In this document: positions 12,163 to 22,307 of the stretch, one piece after another | How the letters are laid out: each line of letters starts with the position of its first letter | Position numbering within the stretch: position 1 is the stretch's first letter | Source of the DNA: an uncultured Candidatus Saccharibacteria bacterium | GTDB taxonomy: Bacteria > Patescibacteriota > Minisyncoccia > Phycocordibacterales > UBA9973 | Length of the DNA: 64,000 nt | Assembly: GCA_964563715.1 (NCBI GenBank) | Contig: CAZLXA010000002.1 | Coordinates: forward strand, 9,467 to 73,466 | Reading direction: 5' to 3' | The notes under the pieces: model-generated | Seen by the model: only the letters and a program-made list of their open reading frames with translations | Database searches by the model: none | What the model was told of the DNA's origin: nothing | Position numbers and translations under genes: made by a program

Positions 12163-12486
12163 ATGTTTCAAATTATTCCCATAGCTGAAGCTAATATTGT
12201 GACTTTAATGGAAAGTATTAATCGGGTTATTATTAATCCATTAATTATTTTACTTTTTGCTTTGGCTGCCGTTTACTTCCTATTTGGTGTGGCTAAATTT
12301 TTATTAGCCCAAGGCAATGAAGAAGTTCGTAAGACAAGTAAAAGTCATATGGTTTGGGGAATAGTTGGAATGTTTATTATGATTGCCGTTTTCGGAATAA
12401 TGAATATTATTCTTACAACTCTAGATGAGGATAGAATAAATTTAGAAGATAATGGTAATTACACAATACAAGAGATGGTTCAATAG
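12163..12486 (+). CDS. TrbC/VirB2-like pilin family protein, paralog 5
   Basis: Two TM helices separated by QGNEEVRKTSKSH. Starts 3 nt after paralog 4. Confidence 0.45.
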   Translation: MFQIIPIAEANIVTLMESINRVIINPLIILLFALAAVYFLFGVAKFLLAQGNEEVRKTSKSHMVWGIVGMFIMIAVFGIMNIILTTLDEDRINLEDNGNYTIQEMVQ

Positions 12487-12562: not shown

Positions 12563-12991
12563 TTATATATCTCGCTTTCGCAAGATTAAGTAACCAGATT
12601 CTCCATTGCTTGATTTAAACCAAAGTTGTTCATTGTGCTCTGATTTTCCAAACTTAGAGGAAATGTCTTGTTTCTTTTGTCCACATTTTTCAACACCATT
12701 CGCATTTATTACGCAGTATGGCTGTGTTGAATTTAGGAAAGCTCCACGACAAGAGCTGGGCACATAAACAGGATCTCCATATTCACCAGTATAATACACT
12801 GTGTCGTATGTGTATTCGATATTGGCGACGGTAGTGGAAGAATTTGCTCCAGGACTATACTCCATTTTTGGCGGATCATAATTCAATTCATCGTTATCTT
12901 TTGCTTTGGAATTTTTTATTCCGGAGATGATAAAAGGAATTACGATAATCAAAATGAGTGCAATACTCAAGAAAATTTTTAACTTATTCAT
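12563..12991 (-). CDS. secreted/membrane-anchored hypothetical protein (142 aa)
   Basis: N-terminal TM helix or signal peptide, and 3 Cys. Its start overlaps the upstream gene's stop (ATGA). Confidence 0.45.
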   Translation of the reverse strand: MNKLKIFLSIALILIIVIPFIISGIKNSKAKDNDELNYDPPKMEYSPGANSSTTVANIEYTYDTVYYTGEYGDPVYVPSSCRGAFLNSTQPYCVINANGVEKCGQKKQDISSKFGKSEHNEQLWFKSSNGESGYLILRKRDI

Positions 12992-14184
12992 GATTTGCCT
13001 CCTTTCATAATGTTAGAAATTAAATCACCAATTCCAGCGATATTTCCTAAAGAACCTTCATAAATAAATCCAGTTCCTGGTTTAAAGTTTTTCCATTTCA
13101 TGATAGCATTATAGCAATCAATATATGGAACATTCGGTACACCACTCTTTTCTAACGCGGACCTAAGAAGGTCCACTTTTTTGATATCCGTTTCTACTTC
13201 ATAGGTTTCTGAATTTCGCTCTTTTTCTTCTTTCTGAAGAGCAATATCAGCTAAATAGATATCCCCAAATGGTTTAACATCACCGACCGTCAACCTTTTT
13301 AGATAGGTGCCAGTATTAGCGATCTTAATTCTGGCGTTACCATTTTTAATTTTTTCGAGCAGAATTTTCCTTTTTTTTATCTTATCTCTAAGAATGTCGA
13401 TGTCAATATTTAGGCGGTTAATCGTACTTAAGAGTTTTTCCCAATTAAGGTTAAATTGATCAGACCAATCATCTTTAAAATCTTTCCCATCCCCCCATTC
13501 TTCTCTAATAATTGCATTTTGCGGATTTTTATTAAGATACCAATCCAAAAGAATAGGAGTAGGAATATGATCATTAATTTTTTCAAAATGATCATATCCA
13601 TCGCTAGGAGGGTTGTCTTCAGAAGAACAAAGAGATTTAGCTAGAAAATCTAAGGTTTTTAATCCTGAACTTATCATTTCTTTCCATTCCATAGGTCCCT
13701 CAGTTATACTTCTTGAATATTCCCTAAGACCACCTTCTAAAATATCAGAAATGTGTTTATCAACCTTAGAATCTTCCCCAATTTCAATAAAAGTTCGAAT
13801 ATCTTCTTCCACTATATTCCACTCAAGTGAAATAGGAATTTTAATATTTATATTGTCTGGAGTTAATACATCTTGCGGATCAAGATCTTTTATTCGACGA
13901 TCTACTGAAAAAATTAGAATATCAAACAGTAATCTTTTTAAGAAGATCCAGTTATAACCTTCTCTCAAAATTACAGGTTTGTTATCAGGTTTCCAAATTT
14001 TTTTGTTTAATCTTGTTAGAACTCCAATTTGGGGAGGTCGATTTTTTATACTATCGTCGATTCCCTGAATTATTACTATTCCAACAATTAGAACTGGAAG
14101 TCCTGTCCAAAGATTTGGAAAAAGAAAAATGAAGATAATTAGGATAATCATTAAAATGATTAGAACCCAGAGTGTGTTTTTCAT
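12988..14184 (-). CDS. membrane protein with possible SPFH/band-7-like domain
   Basis: Two N-terminal TM helices. The segment IGVLTRLNK...REGYNWIF...DVLTPDNINIKIPISLEWNIVE resembles the SPFH core. Assignment is weak. Confidence 0.4.
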   Translation of the reverse strand: MKNTLWVLIILMIILIIFIFLFPNLWTGLPVLIVGIVIIQGIDDSIKNRPPQIGVLTRLNKKIWKPDNKPVILREGYNWIFLKRLLFDILIFSVDRRIKDLDPQDVLTPDNINIKIPISLEWNIVEEDIRTFIEIGEDSKVDKHISDILEGGLREYSRSITEGPMEWKEMISSGLKTLDFLAKSLCSSEDNPPSDGYDHFEKINDHIPTPILLDWYLNKNPQNAIIREEWGDGKDFKDDWSDQFNLNWEKLLSTINRLNIDIDILRDKIKKRKILLEKIKNGNARIKIANTGTYLKRLTVGDVKPFGDIYLADIALQKEEKERNSETYEVETDIKKVDLLRSALEKSGVPNVPYIDCYNAIMKWKNFKPGTGFIYEGSLGNIAGIGDLISNIMKGGKS

Positions 14185-14531: not shown

Positions 14532-14606
14532 GGCCTTATCGTCTAACGGTTAGGACATCGGCTTTTCAAGCCGGTAATCCGGGTTCGATTCCCGGTAGGG
14601 TCACCA
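14532..14606 (+). tRNA. tRNA-Glu (anticodon UUC), CCA encoded
   Basis: Cloverleaf folded by hand: acceptor GGCCTTA/TAGGGTC, anticodon stem TCGGC/GCCGG, loop TTTTCAA, T-arm CCGGG-TTCGATT-CCCGG. Confidence 0.9.
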
Positions 14607-16275
14607 ACAAGCCTTTTGAAGTATATTTTTCTCTATTTATCCTTAAAACTAAAGTCAATTTAGGTGTTCCACTAATTATTTCTTTACAAGTTGGAAACTC
14701 TTCAAAGATCAAACTAAATACTGCCTGCAATTCTTCGGGAGAAGTAATATCTTCAAGCATTTTAGCTGGGTGTTCCATTAAATCTTTTGAAGATTTAATA
14801 TACTCGATTACATCTTCTTCTCTTAATTCAACAGTTTTTCTATTTTCTTTCGATTTATTTATTTTAACTTGTAGTTCTGCTATTTGTTCTTCAATACCAT
14901 TTCTAACAGCGTCCATCGTAGCTAATGGAAAAGATTTTATTAAGTTTGCCTTCTCTAACTCCAAATCTGCAATATGTTGATTTGCTTGAGAAGAAGAAAT
15001 AGCAAGATCACCTTCTTGTTCACGATACTTGAAAAGCAAAACTCTATCAAGAATTTTTATAAAACTATCCGTATAACGAAGTTTGTTTATAAAAGTAAAA
15101 AATTGTTTTTCAATCTCAATTTGATTATAAGAGACTCTTTTATGATTTCTTTCACAGTGATACGCGCCAAATTTAGCACCACTTTTACCAGTTGAAAAAC
15201 TAGCCTTCATAGATTTCCTACAAATATCACAAAGAAGCACCCCTTTAATCGGAAAACTAGGATTATATTTTTTTCTTTTTGCAGAAAGACTAGAAAGATT
15301 TTTCTTTAAAATTAACTGATCTTTACTAATACTTTCAAGATAAATTTTACCTCTGTTTGCTTTATTAAAAGTATCTATAGATACTAAGCCTTTATATTTA
15401 GCAATAATAGGTTGATTTTTTGTCCATTTTTCACATATAACACCACAATAAGTTGTTCTTTTAATTATTGCCTGTAAATGTTTTACTGTCATCTGATGTC
15501 CTCCTATTGAACCCAAAACTTTTTGTTTTGATTTATCCCATCTTTTTTGTAATGGTGTTTTATATCCGATAGTATTTAACTCATCACAAATTTGTTTATC
15601 GGACAATAAACCATCAGCTCGTAAATTAAAAACTTTAATTATAAAAAGTGATCTTTCAGGGTCTGGAACTTGTATACATTTCTTTTTATTTTCAACAAAA
15701 ATTTGTTTATTTACATATCCTTCATCAGGTCTACCTATTTGATAACCATCTTGGGTAAGGCGTATTTCTGGCTTAATAAGACGATGCAAAATTTTTATTC
15801 TTTCTTTTCTTGCGTCTTCAACTTTCTGCCTTTCTGCGTCTTCGCTCGGTCTTGCCACAGCCCAAGAATATTCAAAATCAAAACCAAATTCCTCGAAAGA
15901 ATTTTTCTCATCTTGAATTATTTCTGTTGTATCTCTTAATTTTACATCGAATTGTTTTACATCTTCCCATATTTGATCATAGTCAATGGTTCCAGCTCTA
16001 GTCAATCTATCAAAATCCCAAAAAACAAAATATTTTATATTTACTTGCTTTTTATTGCCCTTTAGTATTTCCATTATTTGTAAATAAACAGGTCTATTTT
16101 TCTTTGTCCCTGTGTAAGGTTCTTTAAAAACAATACCTTGAGGAAAGAGTTTCCAACCCATTTTTTCACAATGAAGTTTTATTTCTCTTTCTTGATCATC
16201 TAAACCCTCGCCATTTTGAGCTTGTTTTGGGCTACTAACTCTTGCATATCCAATTACATAAATAGGTTCGTTCAT
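14566..16275 (-). CDS. large serine recombinase (resolvase/invertase N-domain + recombinase domain + zinc ribbon)
   Basis: YARVSSPKQ catalytic-Ser motif, central recombinase domain, CDICRKS...YHCERNH zinc ribbon and a coiled-coil tail. The last 13 codons are antisense to tRNA-Glu. Confidence 0.85.
   Translation of the reverse strand: MNEPIYVIGYARVSSPKQAQNGEGLDDQEREIKLHCEKMGWKLFPQGIVFKEPYTGTKKNRPVYLQIMEILKGNKKQVNIKYFVFWDFDRLTRAGTIDYDQIWEDVKQFDVKLRDTTEIIQDEKNSFEEFGFDFEYSWAVARPSEDAERQKVEDARKERIKILHRLIKPEIRLTQDGYQIGRPDEGYVNKQIFVENKKKCIQVPDPERSLFIIKVFNLRADGLLSDKQICDELNTIGYKTPLQKRWDKSKQKVLGSIGGHQMTVKHLQAIIKRTTYCGVICEKWTKNQPIIAKYKGLVSIDTFNKANRGKIYLESISKDQLILKKNLSSLSAKRKKYNPSFPIKGVLLCDICRKSMKASFSTGKSGAKFGAYHCERNHKRVSYNQIEIEKQFFTFINKLRYTDSFIKILDRVLLFKYREQEGDLAISSSQANQHIADLELEKANLIKSFPLATMDAVRNGIEEQIAELQVKINKSKENRKTVELREEDVIEYIKSSKDLMEHPAKMLEDITSPEELQAVFSLIFEEFPTCKEIISGTPKLTLVLRINREKYTSKGLLVTLPGIEPGLPA
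14590..14604. repeat. attL core (direct repeat)
   Basis: TCCCGGTAGGGTCAC, identical to 21491-21505. Confidence 0.8.
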
Positions 16276-16290
16276 CGCAAGTATATTTTA

Positions 16291-16452
16291 TCATTTATTA
16301 TCTAAATCTTTAAGCTTTTTATCAATAAACATTTTAAAAGCTATATCAGCAAAGCGAGAAGACATACCAAATAGTTGCTCAATTTCTTTTTCAGAAAATT
16401 GTTTTAATTCCTGTTCTGTAAGTATTTGAGTTTTAAACTCATTAAGCGTCAT
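16291..16452 (-). CDS. small ORF (53 aa) directly upstream of the recombinase; possible directionality factor or regulator
   Basis: Hand-translated as MTLNEFKTQILTEQELKQFSEKEIEQLFGMSSRFADIAFKMFIDKKLKDLDNK. Its stop is 15 nt before the recombinase ATG. It is below the ORF-track size cutoff. Confidence 0.3.
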   Translation of the reverse strand: MTLNEFKTQILTEQELKQFSEKEIEQLFGMSSRFADIAFKMFIDKKLKDLDNK

Positions 16453-16504
16453 TCATAGAGTTTATTCTTAAAAATCTATACAGTAAAAACTGCTTTAAAC
16501 TATA

Positions 16505-17257
16505 CTACTTAGACATCTTAGAAATTATTTTTCTTATTGATCCATTAGATAACTTCTGTTTAAATACTTTTTTAACATAAATTTGAATGATTGTTTCTTT
16601 TCTTTCAAAATTCTTTAATTTACTTTGTATTTCAGGCAAAAGCCCATCATTTTTTGCCAAAAGAAGAAGATCTTTAATCTTTATCTTATGATAATGAAAT
16701 ATAAAATTATCTCTTAAAAAATATTGAGACGGTTTCAGTTTTATAGCCTTGTTTCCACTTAATTTTAATTGAGTTTCAGAAATTATTTTTGAATTAGAAA
16801 GTATAAAAGTTTTAATATTATTAACTGGATTATTTGTTCCAATTCTTACATAGACACCTTTTGGTAAAAACAGACTTTTGTTAGGTAAATCAATAGCTTC
16901 AGATAAAGAAAAAAATTCACAGCCTGTTAAATTTATATTCTTTATAGTTTTATCTGATACTTGATTAAAAATAAAATATTCTTGAAGAAAATCATTAACC
17001 GTCTGGTCTTGAGATATAAATGTGTCAAAATGACTAGGATTATTGTGGGCTAATATAGCTTTATACACGCCTAAATGTCTTACAACAGTAGTTAAATCAT
17101 ATTTACTAAGATCTATGCCATTACCAAAAGCAATACCATATTTAGGCAAACCAGCCCTTTCTCGATGGACAAAAAGAAGTTCCTTGTTTTTCTTTTTAGC
17201 AAGTAATTGAAATAAAACTTGTATTTTTGAAGTGTCTTTTTTCTTTATCATAAACAA
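16505..17257 (-). CDS. island hypothetical protein (250 aa)
   Basis: ORF only. No motif recognised. Very AT-rich. Confidence 0.45.
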   Translation of the reverse strand: MFMIKKKDTSKIQVLFQLLAKKKNKELLFVHRERAGLPKYGIAFGNGIDLSKYDLTTVVRHLGVYKAILAHNNPSHFDTFISQDQTVNDFLQEYFIFNQVSDKTIKNINLTGCEFFSLSEAIDLPNKSLFLPKGVYVRIGTNNPVNNIKTFILSNSKIISETQLKLSGNKAIKLKPSQYFLRDNFIFHYHKIKIKDLLLLAKNDGLLPEIQSKLKNFERKETIIQIYVKKVFKQKLSNGSIRKIISKMSK

Positions 17258-17367
17258 TTACAGTTTACCATTTTTGCTTCAATTTTCCTTAGTTTTTTGT
17301 TATACTAAAATCACAACTAAATAAGTTTTCCTAACCCCTATGAGATTTATTATAGGATATGGAATTT

Positions 17368-17507
17368 AATCGCGACGAACTTAAAGAACCTATCATTAGG
17401 GCGTTCGTCGCGTTATATTGGGAAACCGATATATAGATCTTCGGATCTTCCTAGTGGTAGGCTTTTTGCGTCTTACGCTAGGAATTTATCATTAAATCGC
17501 GACGAAC
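17368..17507. promoter_or_regulatory. iteron/operator-like repeats in the divergent intergenic region
   Basis: AATCGCGACGAAC at 17368-17380 and 17495-17507, with an inverted copy GTTCGTCGCG at 17403-17412. Also an AGATC-TTCG-GATCT hairpin. Confidence 0.45.
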
Positions 17508-17512
17508 AATTT

Positions 17513-17872
17513 ATGGATAAAAAGACAAAAATAATATTGGTAATTGTTTTAATAATAGGTTTATTTTATATATCAAAAAATCTTTTCTCAAATAAAGAAG
17601 CTGATTTATTTCAGAAAAAACAAGAGTGTTCTAAAAACTATGATTTAGTAAATCAAAAAATTAAGGATAGTGGCAGAATTATGAGTAATGAAAGCTACAC
17701 ACTCAATGAGATCTTTTATAGCCCTAAAATGAATACTTGTTTATATGCTTACACTATTCACACTGGAGGCGGAGAAGAAATTTATAGTATTTATGATGTC
17801 TTTGGTGGGGATATTTTTGGAGGTAGTCTTTCTGATGAATTTCAAAAGGAAAGAACAAAATTAAAACAATAA
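17513..17872 (+). CDS. island small membrane-anchored/secreted protein (119 aa)
   Basis: N-terminal TM helix (IILVIVLIIGLFYI) and 2 Cys. Confidence 0.4.
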   Translation: MDKKTKIILVIVLIIGLFYISKNLFSNKEADLFQKKQECSKNYDLVNQKIKDSGRIMSNESYTLNEIFYSPKMNTCLYAYTIHTGGGEEIYSIYDVFGGDIFGGSLSDEFQKERTKLKQ

Positions 17873-18253
17873 TTAAAACTTTCGTATAACTTCTTCAGCA
17901 ATTCTTTGATGATCGAAACTAAATTCAGGAAGTTCCTCGAGATGATTTTTTTCAAAAATTGTATTGGTTGAAAATTCTCTTTTGTATTTTCTTTCTAATA
18001 GCCAAGCACAGGCTTTCCAATCTTTCACTCCAGCCTTTCTGATTGTTTCCAATAGTGTTTGCTTGTATTCAATCACACTTTTGGCAACTTTATCCGAAAA
18101 GTCCGAATTTGAACGCTTCCAATTACAAAGCGTATCTTCGTCTATCCCAGCGAGCAAAGAGGCTTCTTTTTGGGTTAAACCATTGCTTAAAGCCTCAGTG
18201 ATAATAGCAACCCTCTCAGGGGTCATCTTGTATTGTATTTTAGAATTAACCAT
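17873..18253 (-). CDS. HTH DNA-binding protein (phage terminase-small-subunit-like / homeodomain-like)
   Basis: GLTQKEASLLAGIDEDTLCNWKR HTH, followed by WKACAWLLERKY, a pattern common in small phage/mobile-element HTH proteins. Confidence 0.5.
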   Translation of the reverse strand: MVNSKIQYKMTPERVAIITEALSNGLTQKEASLLAGIDEDTLCNWKRSNSDFSDKVAKSVIEYKQTLLETIRKAGVKDWKACAWLLERKYKREFSTNTIFEKNHLEELPEFSFDHQRIAEEVIRKF

Positions 18254-18313
18254 AAATTATTCTTAGCGATTAACTAATAATTTACGATTTGATAATTTAA
18301 TTATAACAGAGAA

Positions 18314-18787
18314 TTAAGGATTTACAACATACAAATAACCCCCTTTGATAGCTTGATTTCTTTGTTGATTTTCAATTATTCTAGGCACAAGATAAAAGAC
18401 AGTGGAAATAAGTAAAAGTGATGTAGCTAAAAGAAATAGAGGTTTTTTATAAAATAAATTATCTTCTTTAATAACCGACTGAAGAGTAATTACAAAAAAC
18501 ATCATCATTGATACAAGTAATATTGAGAGTGATATAAAATCACCCATATTAACAACTTTTTCAAAAAGCTTAAATTCCACTGAAACAAAAGTGATAAAAG
18601 AAGCAAAAATACCTAATATGGTTATTAGTTCTCTTTTTGACTGTTCAATACTGTTAGTCAATTCTTTTGTTTTTTCTTTTAGTGTTCTGATATCAAAATT
18701 TACTGAGTCATCAGAACTTTCTTCAATATTTTTAGCACCCTTATCATCAACTAAACCTATTACTTTTTCTTCTTTTTCTTTCTCCAT
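18314..18787 (-). CDS. island membrane protein (157 aa; acidic N-terminus, 3 predicted TM helices)
   Basis: Hydrophobic segments ILGIFASFITFVSV, FISLSILLVSMMMFFVITL and LFLLATSLLLISTVFYLV. Confidence 0.45.
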   Translation of the reverse strand: MEKEKEEKVIGLVDDKGAKNIEESSDDSVNFDIRTLKEKTKELTNSIEQSKRELITILGIFASFITFVSVEFKLFEKVVNMGDFISLSILLVSMMMFFVITLQSVIKEDNLFYKKPLFLLATSLLLISTVFYLVPRIIENQQRNQAIKGGYLYVVNP

Positions 18788-18790
18788 ATA

Positions 18791-19045
18791 TTATTTTAAT
18801 TCAAGATTTGGAATAAGTGCCTTTAGTGCAAAATAATAGATCCTTCCTGTTGTATTTCCAACAACAATAACCATTGGAACAGATTTTCCACCAAGAATAA
18901 ATCCTGCTGTTTGATCTTGTATTGTTTGAATTGCAAAACCATCCACAAGAGTAAAGCCAGTAGTTTCTCCAAGAAAAGCTTCTCTGTTTTGAAATTTTTG
19001 ATTTAATGCTGTAGTTATTTGACTTTTAAGTGAATTAAAATCCAT
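18791..19045 (-). CDS. island small protein (84 aa)
   Basis: ORF 3 nt upstream of the membrane-protein gene. No motif. Confidence 0.35.
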   Translation of the reverse strand: MDFNSLKSQITTALNQKFQNREAFLGETTGFTLVDGFAIQTIQDQTAGFILGGKSVPMVIVVGNTTGRIYYFALKALIPNLELK

Positions 19046-19119
19046 ATGTATTATTGTAGCATTTTATATACCAAAAATAAATAGTTAAAATTACTAAAAA
19101 GTGGTAAAATACTTTTTAT

Positions 19120-19944
19120 ATGACGACTAAATTACTACAGAATATCAACAAAAAACCACACTTTTTAAGTGATGATTTTGTTTTGTATCAAGGAGATAGC
19201 ATTGAGCATTTAAGCCAACTTCCAGAAGGAAGTGTTGATATGATTTTTGCAGATCCCCCTTATAATTTATCAAATGGTGGTTTTACTGTTCACGCAGGAA
19301 AAATGGTTAGTGTCCACAAGGGAGACTGGGATAAAAGTAAGGGATTTGATAGTGATTATGATTTTCATTTAAAATGGCTAGAAGCTTGCCATAGAGTTTT
19401 AAAAGAAAATGGCACTATTTGGGTAAGTGGAACATATCATTCAATATATCAATGTGGAACAGCAATGCAACAGATTGGATTTCATATTTTAAATGATATA
19501 TCTTGGTTTAAACCAAATGCTTCGCCAAATCTTTCTTGTAGATTTTTTACCGCTTCTCACGAAACATTGATATGGGCAAGAAAAAGCAAAAAAGGTAAAC
19601 ATTATTTTGATTACAAGTTGATGAAAAATGGAGACTGGAAAGATGACTTTATAAAAAAGCCTAATTTACAAATGCGTTCTGTTTGGTCAATACATCCACC
19701 GAAGAATTGGGAAAAAGTTCACGGAAAACATCCAACCCAAAAGCCCATAGAATTATTACGTCGTTGTATTTTAGCAAGCACAAAAAAGGGAGATATAATT
19801 ATTGATCCTTTTACAGGAAGTTCAACAACAGGAATTGCTTCAAAAATGATAGGTGGAAGAAAATTTGTTGGTTTTGATTTAGATAAAAACTTCTTAGACT
19901 TGTCTGTCAAAAGATATAAAGAAATTATTAAAAATAATAAATAA
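19120..19944 (+). CDS. DNA methyltransferase, N4/N6 type (beta class, PF01555-like)
   Basis: Motif IV IFADPPYN comes before motif I DPFTGSSTTG. HPTQKP motif present. Confidence 0.85.
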   Translation: MTTKLLQNINKKPHFLSDDFVLYQGDSIEHLSQLPEGSVDMIFADPPYNLSNGGFTVHAGKMVSVHKGDWDKSKGFDSDYDFHLKWLEACHRVLKENGTIWVSGTYHSIYQCGTAMQQIGFHILNDISWFKPNASPNLSCRFFTASHETLIWARKSKKGKHYFDYKLMKNGDWKDDFIKKPNLQMRSVWSIHPPKNWEKVHGKHPTQKPIELLRRCILASTKKGDIIIDPFTGSSTTGIASKMIGGRKFVGFDLDKNFLDLSVKRYKEIIKNNK

Positions 19945-19949
19945 TATTT

Positions 19950-20495
19950 ATGATAAAAGATGGTAAGGGTGGAGCAAATACAAAAACAGGTCTTGTTTTT
20001 GAAATAGAAAAAGATTTAGTTGTTTTTTTAAGTAAGCAAAAAGGATATACAACTCAAAAAATCGAAGGCTATAAACAATCATATTTTATTCTATACAACA
20101 AAGAACAAGTGGCGAGAACTTTTCCCAAGAATGATTTATATACATTTTTAGAAAAAGAACATAATCTTGATTGGGCTTCTATCCTGTCAAAAAAACTTTT
20201 ACCAGACGATGCCTTATATGTTGTTCTGAATAATACTGTTTATATTATTGAAAAGAAAAATCAACAAGTAGCTGGTTCTGTAGATGAAAAATTACAAACC
20301 TGTGATTTCAAAAGAAAACAATATAAAAAACTTTTTTCAAGATTAAATTTTGAAGTTGAATATATTTATCTTTTATCTGATTGGTTTAAACATCCATCTT
20401 ATAAAGATTATTTGGATTACATTATTTCAGTAGATTGTCAGTATTACTTTGAATATATACCCTTGCAGAAATTAGGACTTCCTATTCCTAAATAA
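19950..20495 (+). CDS. putative type II restriction endonuclease (PD-ExK)
   Basis: Starts 5 nt after the MTase. LPDD...(13 aa)...IIEKK fits the PD-(D/E)xK pattern. Confidence 0.45.
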   Translation: MIKDGKGGANTKTGLVFEIEKDLVVFLSKQKGYTTQKIEGYKQSYFILYNKEQVARTFPKNDLYTFLEKEHNLDWASILSKKLLPDDALYVVLNNTVYIIEKKNQQVAGSVDEKLQTCDFKRKQYKKLFSRLNFEVEYIYLLSDWFKHPSYKDYLDYIISVDCQYYFEYIPLQKLGLPIPK

Positions 20496-20504
20496 TTTTT
20501 ATAT

Positions 20505-21152
20505 ATGGCAAACGAACAAGAAATTAAAGATAACCTAAAAGCACTAGAAGATAGTATTTTTGAAGCTAAATCTGCTTATACACTTTGGAAAGTAATTGCA
20601 TACTCTAGGTCAAGTGGAGTTGTTCCGCTAGAATTAGCTGAAAAATATGTAAAATCTCAGCAAACAGCACCTGCTTTTTTTATTATGGCAGAAAGAACTG
20701 CTTTAATTTCTTTTGTTATTCTTATTCTACACCCCATAGATCAAGACTCTAGATCTTTTTCTCTTTTTAATGTTAATAAAGAAAAAACAAATGAATTTAT
20801 AAAACAAAACGAAAAAACAGTTGAAAATCTTAGATTAGTAAGAAATAAAGTATTTGCACACAAGGATAGTGTAGACGCTTTAAAAATTTTAGTTCCATCA
20901 ATAGAGATAATGGACAATTTTTTTGAAAATATGATTAGTTTTTATAATAATTTAACCAGTGAACACAACCAAAGCATAACTGATTTTAATGCTAGTTGTG
21001 ATAATCTTATTCACGAAATGGAGTATATGTTTATGAACTTAACAAGAGGAGAAAAAATTAGGCTAGAAGAAATAGATCTTGAATGGATGTGGGAAAAAAA
21101 TCCTAAAAAAATATCGGACATTTTTGATAGTAAGAATAATAAAAAATCTTAA
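20505..21152 (+). CDS. HEPN-domain protein (AbiU2-like), putative RNase / abortive-infection effector
   Basis: LRLVRNKVFAHKD contains the RNxxxAH form of the HEPN Rx4-6H motif. Helical composition. Starts 9 nt after the endonuclease ORF. Confidence 0.45.
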   Translation: MANEQEIKDNLKALEDSIFEAKSAYTLWKVIAYSRSSGVVPLELAEKYVKSQQTAPAFFIMAERTALISFVILILHPIDQDSRSFSLFNVNKEKTNEFIKQNEKTVENLRLVRNKVFAHKDSVDALKILVPSIEIMDNFFENMISFYNNLTSEHNQSITDFNASCDNLIHEMEYMFMNLTRGEKIRLEEIDLEWMWEKNPKKISDIFDSKNNKKS

Positions 21153-21337
21153 CAAGTTAATGATAGACAGTTCTACTCCTATAACGGTATAAATATTTTA
21201 GTAATTTTTTAATTTTAAGTATATTTTACAACCTCAGTTTTATTTATAAGTAAATACCCATAGGTAGATAAAACACTTTTCCATTTTAAAATCTCTATTT
21301 CAAAGGTGTTCCACTCTATGGACTGTAAGCTCACAAA

Positions 21338-21372
21338 TGAAAAAACCTGTCGCAAGATAGGTCTTTTCATTT
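21338..21372. repeat. hairpin repeat copy 1 (ATGAAAAAACCTGTCGCAAGATAGGTCTTTTCATTT)
   Basis: Near-identical to 22272-22307. Sits within a longer perfect stem at 21332-21375. Confidence 0.8.
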
Positions 21373-21490
21373 GTGATCCTAAGCGAGATATCTGCATATC
21401 TCGCGTCCGGGAGTCGAAAAGCTTTTGTGTCTTTTTTAAAATTCATTTTAAAAAAGTACAAAAGGTATACTGTTCTCGTAGAGAAAGATA

Positions 21491-21505
21491 TCCCGGTAGG
21501 GTCAC
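21491..21505. repeat. attR core (direct repeat)
   Basis: TCCCGGTAGGGTCAC, identical to the tRNA-Glu 3' segment. Confidence 0.8.
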
Positions 21506-21580: not shown

Positions 21581-22117
21581 ATGGAAAATGTTTTAGAAAT
21601 GATCCGCCAAAAAGCGGAAGAAGTTATTAGTGCTTATGTTAAACTGCCAGAAAGTCTTACAGAAAGAAATGGCCGTGAAGGTGGTTACCTTACAATCAAA
21701 AATATCCAATCAGGAATGATTGAAGCTATTTATTTGATTGGATGCATTCAAAAAGGTAAGGAAGAAAAATACCTTACCTTATCGCAGGAAAAAGCTAATC
21801 GTCTTTTCAGAGTTAGAATGTCAGGAGGAAACGATCGAACTTCTTGGGAGAGTAGAAATGAGGAAAAAATGGAATATGGTGGGGCTATCTTTTTTCCTGC
21901 TTGGGATGAAGAATACATATTATCATTTTCTGGTCTTCCTGAACTTGGAGATGAAGCTTGCATGTTCATTACTCAAGCATTAATTTCTTCAAAATCAGCT
22001 GAAACGATTGAGCTCGAAGCTTCGTCTATACTACATTCAATTTATTTCAGTAAGTTAGGAAGGCCCGGACAACCCCTATTCCATGCTTTGTTGGAAGCAT
22101 TTAAAATAAAAATTTAA
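21581..22117 (+). CDS. hypothetical protein (178 aa); faint GlcG/DUF336-like GGAI...SG...DE pattern
   Basis: ORF followed by a terminator hairpin. The motif resemblance is weak. Confidence 0.45.
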   Translation: MENVLEMIRQKAEEVISAYVKLPESLTERNGREGGYLTIKNIQSGMIEAIYLIGCIQKGKEEKYLTLSQEKANRLFRVRMSGGNDRTSWESRNEEKMEYGGAIFFPAWDEEYILSFSGLPELGDEACMFITQALISSKSAETIELEASSILHSIYFSKLGRPGQPLFHALLEAFKIKI

Positions 22118-22170: not shown

Positions 22171-22271
22171 GTTAATTTACTGTATCCTTTTATATTCTCT
22201 ACAATCTGATTCCCCGCCTACTCACGAGTACACGAGGGCGGGCGGGCAATTTGAACTACAAAGAGTCATAG

Positions 22272-22307
22272 ATGAAAAAACCTGTCGTAAGATAGGTTTT
22301 TTCATTT
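22272..22307. repeat. hairpin repeat copy 2
   Basis: ATGAAAAAACCTGTCGTAAGATAGGTTTTTTCATTT. Confidence 0.8.

Follow-up and report, generated by a model that had tools for sequence, protein, structure and literature searches.

A genomic island at the end of a tRNA-Glu gene in a Candidatus Saccharibacteria bacterium, probably moved by a large serine recombinase whose gene appears to be split on integration

Classical tRNA islands of the Islander type are recognised by a tyrosine integrase together with a displaced tRNA repeat at the far end of the island. With regard to serine integrases, Mageeney et al. 2020 (PMC7192596) predicted tRNA targeting in 14 of 297 cases, stated that such targeting had been unreported before and called for experimental proof, while a preprint on tycheposons (10.1101/2020.12.28.424599) counted a large serine recombinase (LSR) in 27 of 937 elements, tycheposons and cryptic elements taken together. 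Integrases that split their own gene are described as the 'suicidal' SSV1-type tyrosine integrases of archaea (PMC8371274), and a related principle, a protein terminus altered by integration, is described for mycobacteriophage BPs (PMC4557955). Here we describe an island that adjoins a tRNA-Glu gene in a contig of an uncultured Candidatus Saccharibacteria bacterium (GenBank assembly GCA_964563715.1, contig CAZLXA010000002.1, positions 9,467 to 73,466; these 64,000 nt are referred to as the window), together with the LSR that it encodes and the related loci in which the same arrangement recurs.

A sequence-only reading of the window had proposed a compact foreign island integrated at tRNA-Glu, with a recombinase gene next to the left attachment site (attL) and defence-type cargo. 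This part of the proposal holds, and the island is polymorphic in the source population. On the evidence set out below it is probable that positions 14605–21330 constitute an element moved by its LSR to the end of tRNA-Glu, that the attachment site of the free element (attP) lies within the recombinase gene, that integration exchanges the tail of the recombinase, and that a second copy of a tRNA-derived 15-mer, taken earlier for the right end, is older debris. The features on which this reading depends are the following.

14532–14606, plus strand: intact tRNA-Glu(UUC), the integration target (ARAGORN; Rfam tRNA, 63.2 bits; sequence)
14566–16275, minus strand: large serine recombinase, 569 residues, integrated form (Pfam, PHROG, homologues, profile, fold)
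14601–14604, plus strand: left shared core TCAC, attL (Logan contig end points; junction table)
14605–21330: variable (mobile) segment, 6,726 bp (Logan contig ends, GC content, GANTC counts)
21215–21334, minus strand: displaced 3' end of the recombinase gene and at the same time the P arm of the right attachment site (attR), reading VSLQSIEWNTFEIEILKWKSVLSTYGYLLINKTEVVKYT and a stop (hidden Markov model, HMM, of the tail)
21331–21334, plus strand: right shared core TCAC, attR (Logan contig ends; junction table)
21335–21372, plus strand: chromosomal palindromic terminator-like hairpin adjoining attR
21373–21505, plus strand: chromosomal flank, not island, with an inverted and a direct copy of the tRNA-Glu 3' end

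According to the mechanism that we propose, the element would exist as a free circle, would presumably pass between cells and would insert, by means of the LSR, at the last bases of tRNA-Glu, where the acceptor stem runs out into the discriminator. In the circle the gene would encode a protein of 596 residues ending in a flexible linker and a helix of about 28 residues (WNTFEIEILKW...). Recombination with the tRNA end would need only the shared core of 3–4 bp (TCAC), somewhere within which the crossover presumably falls, and would leave the tRNA intact, its body remaining host-derived. At the left end, the last 38 codons, specifying the predicted C-terminal helix, would be replaced by 11 codons read from the tRNA, while the tail-coding piece would be stranded at the right end (21215–21334). 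The predicted chromosomal site (attB) reads ...TTCGATTCCCGGTAGGGTCAC joined to AAATGAAAAAACCTGTCGCAAG and the predicted attP reads ...CCACTCTATGGACTGTAAGCTCAC joined to CAACAAGCCTTTTGAAGTA. The empty site should lead from ...GGTAGGGTCAC directly to AAATGAAAAAACC, i.e., from tRNA-Glu...GGGTCAC to AAATGAAAAAACC. The second 15-mer would belong to older tRNA-derived repeat debris of the chromosomal flank.

The protein itself carries a Resolvase domain (Pfam PF00239, 1.8e-14, residues 7–130) and a Recombinase domain (PF07508, 6.5e-07, 30 bits vs. a cut-off of 21.1), and matches PHROG integrases (2.9e-36). Serine 14 within YARVSS and a Cys/His cluster (C349, C352, C374, H378) are invariant among 40 aligned homologues, for several of which PF13408 is recorded, and a family profile built from these 40 sequences matches the catalytic domain of TP901-1 integrase (6e-13). 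An AlphaFold2 (AF2) model of the intact homologue P0040, 43% identical to the window protein (mean predicted local distance difference test score, pLDDT, 76), has full-length complexes of the serine integrases Bxb1 and phiC31 with their attachment sites as top Foldseek matches and shows long paired helices at 401–477, these coordinates being those of the homologue. Judged from catalytic serine, Recombinase domain, zinc ribbon, coiled coil and short shared core, the protein belongs to the LSRs, the zinc ribbon with its inserted coiled coil being supported structurally by the model of P0040. The recombinase gene abutting attL had already been recognised in the sequence-only reading; since it encodes an LSR and not a tyrosine integrase, a long repeat is not needed at the ends of the element.

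What that reading lacked is that the recombinase open reading frame (ORF) overlaps the tRNA gene by 39 nt. The complement of the tRNA acceptor and T-arm supplies its final 11 codons (TLPGIEPGLPA) together with the stop, and the preceding Val codon spans the shared core. At the other end of the island, an HMM built from 32 intact tails matches 21218–21442 on the minus strand (E = 2.9e-7), reading ...FVSLQSIEWNTFEIEILKWKSV.... The intact ORF of P0040 carries TTTGTGAGCGTACAGTCCCTCGAATGGAAC in frame where the attR of the window reads TTTGTGAGCTTACAGTCCATAGAGTGGAAC, which is near-identical DNA. From the in-frame junction of P0040 and the orphan tail in the window it follows that integration cuts the recombinase gene, attP lying inside its 3' end. 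Neither the 555 codons of the body nor the 38 codons of the tail contain a stop, and the tail holds the family motif far past the length of an att arm, about 25 bp, which suggests that it is still used as protein. Beyond the coiled coil, the P0040 model shows in turn a small helical domain (484–533), a low-confidence linker that contains the codons of the att core (544–560), and a tail consisting of a single helix (563–591) that starts at a conserved Trp. Integration would accordingly exchange one tethered terminal helix for about 11 tRNA-encoded residues. We infer from this architecture that the exchange might alter the activity or the direction of the recombinase, and that the two forms of the protein might differ in this respect.

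The arrangement is not confined to the window. At E <= 1e-10 we collected 424 homologues of the recombinase, the few with source names stemming from metagenome-assembled genomes (MAGs) of Parcubacteria, Patescibacteria or Gracilibacteria. Their C-termini fall into two classes, tails that read as tRNA complement, such as ...VTLRGIEPRLQE, and a longer tail with the motif WNTIE..L.W..F. Among 79 related loci, one genome being taken per species, the recombinase ORF ends inside a tRNA gene of the opposite strand in 49, the targets being tRNA-Glu in 29 cases, Lys in 6, His in 4, Arg in 4, Trp in 3 and Gly, Tyr and Gln in one each. Tails resembling tRNA were found at contig ends in 8 more loci and an intact Trp-Asn (WN) tail in 13. 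An orphan tail was detected by the HMM in about 24 of the tRNA-fused loci, always on the strand of the recombinase and 3–9 kb upstream of it.

When the junctions of 11 tRNA-Glu loci were aligned with those of the window (another three attR windows offered no anchor), the consensus was ..ttgGTGA followed by CCCTACsGGGAATCGAACC for attL, the latter part being tRNA complement, and ..tttGTGA followed by GCCCAtTGTACCTaGAATGGAAC for attR, so that left and right junctions have only (G)TGA in common, corresponding to TCA(C) on the tRNA strand. Within the window, TCAC alone is common to attL and attR. It comprises the last two bases of the acceptor stem, the discriminator A and a C, of which only TCA is common to every aligned related locus, while the last two bases of the tRNA-encoded CCA (14605–14606) are island DNA. 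With the island present tRNA-Glu thus encodes CCA (TCAC+CA); the predicted empty site reads TCAC+AA and would depend on a CCA-adding enzyme. In 22 tabulated related loci the right junction lies about 27 nt before the Trp codon of the tail fragment, and in about nine of the tabulated loci a terminator-like hairpin is situated just outside attR, as expected 3' of a tRNA gene. The attP arm beside the core resembles the tRNA arm (above all GAATGGAAC in attP vs. GAATCGAAC in the T-loop complement), a likeness that may explain the use of eight tRNA species and, in part, the conservation of the W-N codons.

Some relatives stand apart from this pattern. Distant proteins with an intact WN tail, 30–38% identical, were noted in loci L014, L034, L035, L038, L057, L060, L062, L063, L068, L070, L076 and L080, on contigs binned to lineages outside Patescibacteria (Rhodobacteraceae, Rhizobiaceae, Verrucomicrobiia, Saprospiraceae and others), with no adjoining tRNA. 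The intact-tail contigs L090 and L092 were considered as possible circular forms and set aside; having neither terminal overlap nor tRNA nor LOOT RNA (see below), they do not demonstrate a circle. In L046 (543–2198) and L039 (2055–3884) an intact-tail recombinase is encoded in the same direction as the tRNA-fused copy, 6–8 kb upstream of it, a layout that tandem insertion would give, the tail of the newer element being joined to the body of the older recombinase.

The boundaries of the variable segment were read independently from Logan contigs, which were reached by exact-protein look-ups, stem from five sequencing runs and map to the window at 100% identity. Contig L095 corresponds to window positions 14575–21360 and, like it, L096, L097 and L098 end at 21360; L001 and L002 begin at 21331 and L005 ends at 14604. 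Overlaps at both junctions measure exactly 30 nt across the five samples, which equals k-1 if the contigs are assumed to be unitigs of k=31. On that assumption, 14605–21330 forms one branch between two branch points, and the island contig L095 runs into both branch nodes. The pattern of end points fits a second allele that joins 14604 to 21335, in which either nothing or some other insert occupies these bases. The breaks fall on exactly the nucleotides at which the family comparison predicts the junctions.

A foreign origin of the segment is argued from three observations. Its GC fraction (14605–21334) is 0.287 vs. 0.327 in the remainder of the window and lies below that of all 176 windows of the same size taken elsewhere, so that the AT-richness seen earlier by eye is borne out by the profile, though the difference is modest. 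Second, GAATC and GATTC (together GAWTC) are absent from the island only (0 observed vs. 9.5 expected in 14605–21330; for GANTC 3 vs. 12.7), the rest of the window not being depleted. Third, the syntenic relative L085/L086 has no recombinase island.

The 15-bp repeat TCCCGGTAGGGTCAC on which the sequence-only reading had based its island ends is genuine. It occurs at exactly two sites, 14590–14604 and 21491–21505, even with 2 mismatches allowed, none of 100 shuffles gave at least 2 matches, and the first copy lies in the 3' half of tRNA-Glu as claimed, covering the 3' strands of T-stem and acceptor, the discriminator A and the first C. Taken as att core, it would delimit an island of 14605–21490 with the tRNA 3' end duplicated as in classical tRNA islands. 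The junctions would then be ...TTCGATTCCCGGTAGGGTCAC joined to AGATTGACGTATAT for attB and ...GTAGAGAAAGATATCCCGGTAGGGTCAC joined to CAACAAGCC for attP, with ...GGGTTCGATTCCCGGTAGGGTCAC leading to AGATTGACG and ...GAGAAAGATATCCCGGTAGGGTCAC to CAACAAGCC as expected joins. An exact repeat far beyond chance that matches a tRNA 3' end and stands in direct orientation near the far end of foreign DNA speaks for such boundaries, as do direct copies of the tRNA 3' end, 16–19 nt long, in L027, L040 and L059. Nevertheless, we consider it very improbable that the repeat is the att core and 21505 the right end. The chromosomal contigs L001 and L002 cross 21491–21505 without a break, so the polymorphic junction is not at the second 15-mer; island and chromosome contigs all break at 21331/21360, and contig ends and family comparison agree in placing the right junction at 21331–21334. 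Among 47 tested tRNA-fused loci, a direct repeat of the tRNA 3' end of at least 12 nt within 10 kb upstream is present only in the three just named, in each about 150–190 nt beyond the junction at the tail fragment; direct repeats are therefore not a signature of this recombinase family. With the 15-mer as core, the free-form recombinase would moreover end in YLSLREQYTFCTFLK and a stop, leaving the conserved tail untranslated. Finally, serine recombinases work without long identity between their att sites.

The second 15-mer, 157 bp outside the variable segment, finds its place in the structure of the right flank. In the sense of the tRNA, TCAC is followed by the terminator palindrome; next comes the tRNA 3' end in inverted form (21373–21418, consisting of GTGATCCTA, a 25-nt insert and CCGGGAGTCGAA), then a spacer of about 70 nt and the direct copy (21487–21505, GATATCCCGGTAGGGTCAC) that contains the 15-mer. 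With attR at 21331–21334 the hairpin 21335–21372 would be chromosomal, and where the site is empty it probably acts as the tRNA-Glu terminator; it recurs, 90% identical, at 22266–22307. The sequence-only reading had itself allowed that the second repeat might belong to a degenerate tRNA instead of an att site, and this comes close to what was found: the flank contains the tRNA 3' end as an inverted repeat, of which this copy forms one arm. The same layout of inverted and direct copy outside attR is seen in L027 (2430–2700) and L059 (5430–5910). L040 (2590–2900, tRNA-His as target) has a direct copy and, recognised by eye, an inverted T-loop remnant, and L026 and L042 have the inverted copy alone, in total about 6 of 23 cases examined (22 loci and the window). 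In the window, L027, L059 and L040 the inverted copy comes right after the tRNA terminator and 70–110 nt, approximately, separate it from the direct copy. Extrusion of the terminator hairpin would bring the inverted copy up against the tRNA end to give a near-palindrome.

Further traces of tRNA sequence lie beyond this repeat. The region 22203–22307 contains a second remnant resembling a tRNA 3' end (GATTCCCCGCCTACTCAC), then a degenerate tRNA-Glu 3' half and then the hairpin copy already mentioned, and between the tRNA remnants there is an ORF of 178 residues (21581–22117) that may be the leftover of an older insert. In L085 (6445–7645) tRNA-Glu is in the opposite orientation relative to the SPFH gene, and a tRNA-Glu-like remnant (CCCCCTAGGGTCAC) at a distance of 1.1 kb from it flanks an unrelated ORF of 191 residues. 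The short motif TCAGATTGTRGAGAATATAARRGGAT is found beside the tRNA remnants in the window genome as well as in L085. From these sequences the tRNA-Glu region is read as a hotspot with the remains of older events.

Several points weigh against the proposed mechanism. Neither the empty-site nor the circular junction was seen directly; the empty allele is deduced from contig end points under the k=31 reading, and a different insert at the same bases would yield identical end points. The ends of the Logan contigs carry no sign of a circular (attP) form, and the predicted 596-residue recombinase was absent from the protein collection upon exact look-up. A degenerate attL/attR/attB/attP pattern gave 0 matches in metagenome contigs from JGI, not even to the known junctions, the source sample evidently lying outside that collection. 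The recurrence of a tRNA-derived inverted repeat beside several unrelated islands is not explained by the model. The conservation of the W-N codons could reflect a DNA binding site and not protein function, and no transfer machinery was recognised, in that capsid, conjugation and replication genes were not found and the family is nearly absent from viral contigs. Fusion to the tRNA may have left the recombinase inactive, and the element may then be stuck.

This last point leads to a reading as a fixed remnant, in which loss of the tail disabled the recombinase, the element no longer moves and the contig breaks reflect other strain variation. Besides the lacking attP signal and the lacking free-form protein, it can draw on a review that treats integrases splitting their own gene as 'suicidal' (PMC8371274). 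We regard it as unlikely nonetheless: body and tail are free of stops and the tail motif is kept beyond the att arm, the break points match family-predicted junctions to the base, distinct GC content and GAWTC depletion argue for a recent arrival, and in L046 and L039 the fused recombinase is preceded by an intact one, as repeated insertion would give.

A second feature absent from the sequence-only reading is a structured RNA within the island, followed by a protein-coding gene:

17328–17449, plus strand: LOOT RNA (Rfam RF03000), 70.9 bits vs. a gathering score of 46.4
17450–17512, plus strand: 3' extension of LOOT, with a GC hairpin and U-run at about 17450–17470 and a 13-nt copy of the P3 5' strand at 17494–17506
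17513–17872, plus strand: protein of 119 residues with an N-terminal hydrophobic segment, encoded downstream of LOOT

The window copy exceeds the gathering threshold and has the six-helix structure, and is on these grounds a member of LOOT. The Rfam model found LOOT in 9 of the first 10 related loci scanned. A covariance model built from those copies was run over the 79 loci and detected exactly one LOOT in each of 28, of which 27 lie 0.4–3.8 kb upstream of the recombinase start; the copy in L006, at 7 kb, lies outside the mapped island, perhaps likewise owing to tandem insertion. No LOOT was found with this model in three host loci without recombinase. Over the resulting 29 copies, 95% of cells hold paired bases and both partners vary in 33 of the 35 pairs. 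Most copies are followed by a short GC hairpin and U-run (L026 and L064 are without), and every one of the 29 by an ORF on the same strand, at a distance of 4–84 nt (33–84 nt in 26). The products of 24 of these 29 ORFs possess an N-terminal hydrophobic segment, and the Pfam matches among 27 scanned comprise Imm_superinfect (three), SHOCT (two) and PG_binding_1 (two). From this context LOOT looks like a cis-acting 5' leader for a cassette of envelope genes rather than a free-standing small RNA (sRNA) gene.

In seven of the 29 loci, including the window, the 5' strand of P3 is repeated at most 30 nt upstream of the start codon, namely 7–15 nt before it (7 nt before AUG in the window), vs. 3% in cross-locus controls, and the minimum-energy fold of the window sequence uses the alternative pairing with the P3 copy. 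Pairing of P3 in front of the start codon was rejected as a universal feature, being restricted to this subset. The possibility that LOOT serves the recombinase as guide or bridge RNA was likewise rejected: the conserved loop of LOOT (AAAGAACCCAUCAU) does not change with the targeted tRNA, many tRNA-fused loci are devoid of LOOT, and its strand varies relative to the recombinase while its position ahead of the ORF is constant.

A wider proposal can be put forward only tentatively, and we hold it to be somewhat doubtful: a widespread family of Patescibacteria elements whose serine recombinase would recognise features universal among tRNAs, the T-loop and the acceptor end, and would gain access to eight tRNA species through T-loop mimicry in attP, with the tail swap as a switch of direction or activity that dispenses with a directionality factor and with LOOT as riboswitch-like leader of an envelope or superinfection-exclusion cassette.

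The remaining genes of the island are listed below.

16291–16452, minus strand: conserved small protein, 53 residues, directly upstream of the recombinase (position and motif)
16505–17257, minus strand: protein of 250 residues without assigned function (3 homologues found)
17873–18253, minus strand: helix-turn-helix (HTH) protein, 126 residues (PHROG 4102 'terminase small subunit', 1.2e-17)
18314–19045, minus strand: two ORFs without family match, 157 residues (hydrophobic C-terminal half) and 84 residues
19120–19944, plus strand: type II beta-class N6/N4 DNA methyltransferase, CcrM/HinfI-like (Pfam, PADLOC, NCBIfam)
19950–20495, plus strand: candidate restriction endonuclease, 181 residues (weak PDDEXK_11 match, 4.2e-4, below cut-off)
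20505–21152, plus strand: HEPN AbiU2-family protein, 215 residues (Pfam HEPN_AbiU2, PF18734)

In agreement with the sequence-only reading the gene content includes recombinase, methyltransferase, a PD-(D/E)XK-like ORF, a HEPN and an HTH protein; five ORFs are without family match. Its statement that there is almost no recognisable cargo was too low an estimate, as the LOOT leader and the conserved small protein are present in addition. When ORFs were clustered across 23 islands, the recombinase was found in all, while the content beyond the small protein and the HTH protein is variable. The small protein occupies the same position in 16 of the 23 (BLAST groups F1 and F10, merged by position and a motif recognised by eye, EFKK.LG..SDEQIE..LA..F..W); it matched no family in Pfam, PADLOC, PHROG or NCBIfam scans and is a candidate accessory or directionality factor. 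One of the three homologues of the 250-residue protein has a longest contig of 11,131 nt, as has the family recombinase P0049. The AF2 model of the 250-residue protein (pLDDT 49) is unusable, and a PDB sequence search gave no match for it; such searches returned nothing useful for the 181-residue protein and the recombinase either.

The methyltransferase is firmly placed by Pfam N6_N4_Mtase (6.5e-56) and PADLOC MTase_II (5.6e-94), with a match to NCBIfam CcrM (4.4e-73) that is below the cut-off of that model. For the 181-residue protein, which had no PADLOC, NCBIfam or PDB match, operon position and GAWTC depletion support a role as endonuclease indirectly. The 215-residue protein is an AbiU2 (HEPN) protein as judged from its domain (34.6 bits vs. 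a cut-off of 26.8) and an R-x4-6-H motif, present in the translation as R-x5-H (RNKVFAH). No PADLOC model matched this protein or the putative nuclease. Methyltransferase, putative nuclease and HEPN AbiU2 protein are read as a defence operon, and the depletion of GANTC and GAWTC suggests that the element arrived recently and avoids the sites recognised by the GAWTC/GANTC-specific restriction-modification system that it would carry.

The HTH protein invites a further explanation, according to which a helper phage packages the island, itself a phage satellite or decayed prophage, with the HTH protein as small terminase. It matches PHROG 'terminase small subunit' families, the best at the value listed above, the element is small and carries an integrase, superinfection-immunity domains occur in 3 of the 27 LOOT-downstream proteins scanned, and Patescibacteria genomes are reported to carry prophages (PMC12455944). 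On the other hand, Pfam, PHROG and NCBIfam scans revealed no capsid, portal, large terminase, primase or replication gene; as stated in the sequence-only reading, no capsid, tail or conjugation family was matched, the HTH protein being the sole phage-like match. The HTH family is present in only 5 of the 23 islands, and the window protein obtains further, weak matches as a generic HTH or control protein (HTH_Tnp_1 and a PADLOC control protein). Relatives of the recombinase number 2 in 2.9 million viral contigs vs. 207 in genome contigs. A satellite origin therefore appears improbable, and with its small-terminase-like HTH protein as the only match the island does not resemble the satellites known as phage-inducible chromosomal islands (PICIs), which combine an integrase with a replication module and with packaging or capsid-redirection genes.

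Host DNA to the left of the island deserves brief mention. Between about 10343 and 12159 (plus strand) lie four small paralogous genes in a row with T4SS_pilin (PF18895) matches, followed by an ORF of 107 residues (12163–12486) for which a PF18895 match is obtained only in the copies of its relatives. The run adjoins an SPFH/Band_7 gene (12988–14184), and this arrangement is kept in the relatives L085, L087 and L089.

In the literature, to which access was partial so that earlier work may exist, we found no description of serine-recombinase islands at tRNA ends in Patescibacteria and none of a function or genetic context of LOOT. The element belongs to a large and apparently undescribed family of such tRNA-end-targeting islands. 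The family would be a large natural counter-example to the statements in the literature that serine integrases are not known at tRNA genes and that self-splitting integrases are confined to archaea. It would provide serine integrases that target the near-universal tRNA 3' end, which are of interest for genome engineering, including that of organisms hard to modify. For Patescibacteria, about whose mobile elements little is known, it would be a common carrier of defence genes. The orphan LOOT RNA gains a genetic context and a testable role. For annotation, the lesson is that a perfect tRNA-derived direct repeat near an integrase gene does not prove an island boundary.

Comparison with known systems starts with LOOT, which was introduced as a motif by Weinberg et al. 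2017 (PMC5737381; RF03000) and is mentioned in passing in the CaCoFold paper (PMC7657543). The copies treated here agree with it in scores above gathering and in a covariation-supported structure. In Rfam LOOT is an sRNA gene, whereas here it is a component of LSR islands: a terminator-like hairpin follows it, then, after a short and fixed interval, an envelope-protein gene, and in a subset of loci it is capable of alternative pairing with the region just before the start codon.

With the LSR elements phiC31, Bxb1, TP901-1, A118 and SCCmec CcrAB the island shares the domain order of the recombinase (catalytic domain, recombinase domain, zinc ribbon with coiled coil), the fold as judged by Foldseek, a short shared core at the junctions and an integrase gene at the edge of the element. 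Unlike typical LSR elements, it has a tRNA 3' end as target and attP inside the recombinase ORF, and its family possesses an extra C-terminal module after the coiled coil, made up of small helical domain, linker and tail helix. Classical Islander-type islands and tycheposons are likewise small islands at tRNA genes with defence or adaptive cargo, and the site in the window likewise looks like a hotspot with debris; the window differs from the Islander type in that a serine integrase takes the place of the tyrosine integrase, the crossover is at the discriminator and no tRNA fragment is duplicated at the true boundary, the 15-mer being 157 bp beyond it. Mycobacteriophage BPs, with its integration-dependent immunity (PMC4557955), also has attP in a coding sequence, so that integration alters the C-terminus of a regulatory protein, but there a tyrosine integrase is at work and it is the repressor gene that is affected, while here the integrase's own C-terminus changes. 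Closest in this respect are the SSV1-type integrases, in which attP lies within the integrase gene and integration at a tRNA gene splits it to opposite ends of the element. The window shows this arrangement too, with the body at 14566–16275 and the tail at 21215–21334 on the same strand, and about 24 related loci do likewise. SSV1-type integrases are tyrosine recombinases, have been reported only from archaea and are split such that an N-terminal portion is parted from the catalytic domain (PMC8371274), whereas the bacterial serine recombinase described here is parted from no more than its C-terminal 38 residues (of 596), for which 11 tRNA-encoded residues are substituted. The window recombinase thus works like the SSV type in one respect and is not a member of it, belonging as it does to the serine family and to loci from Patescibacteria MAGs.

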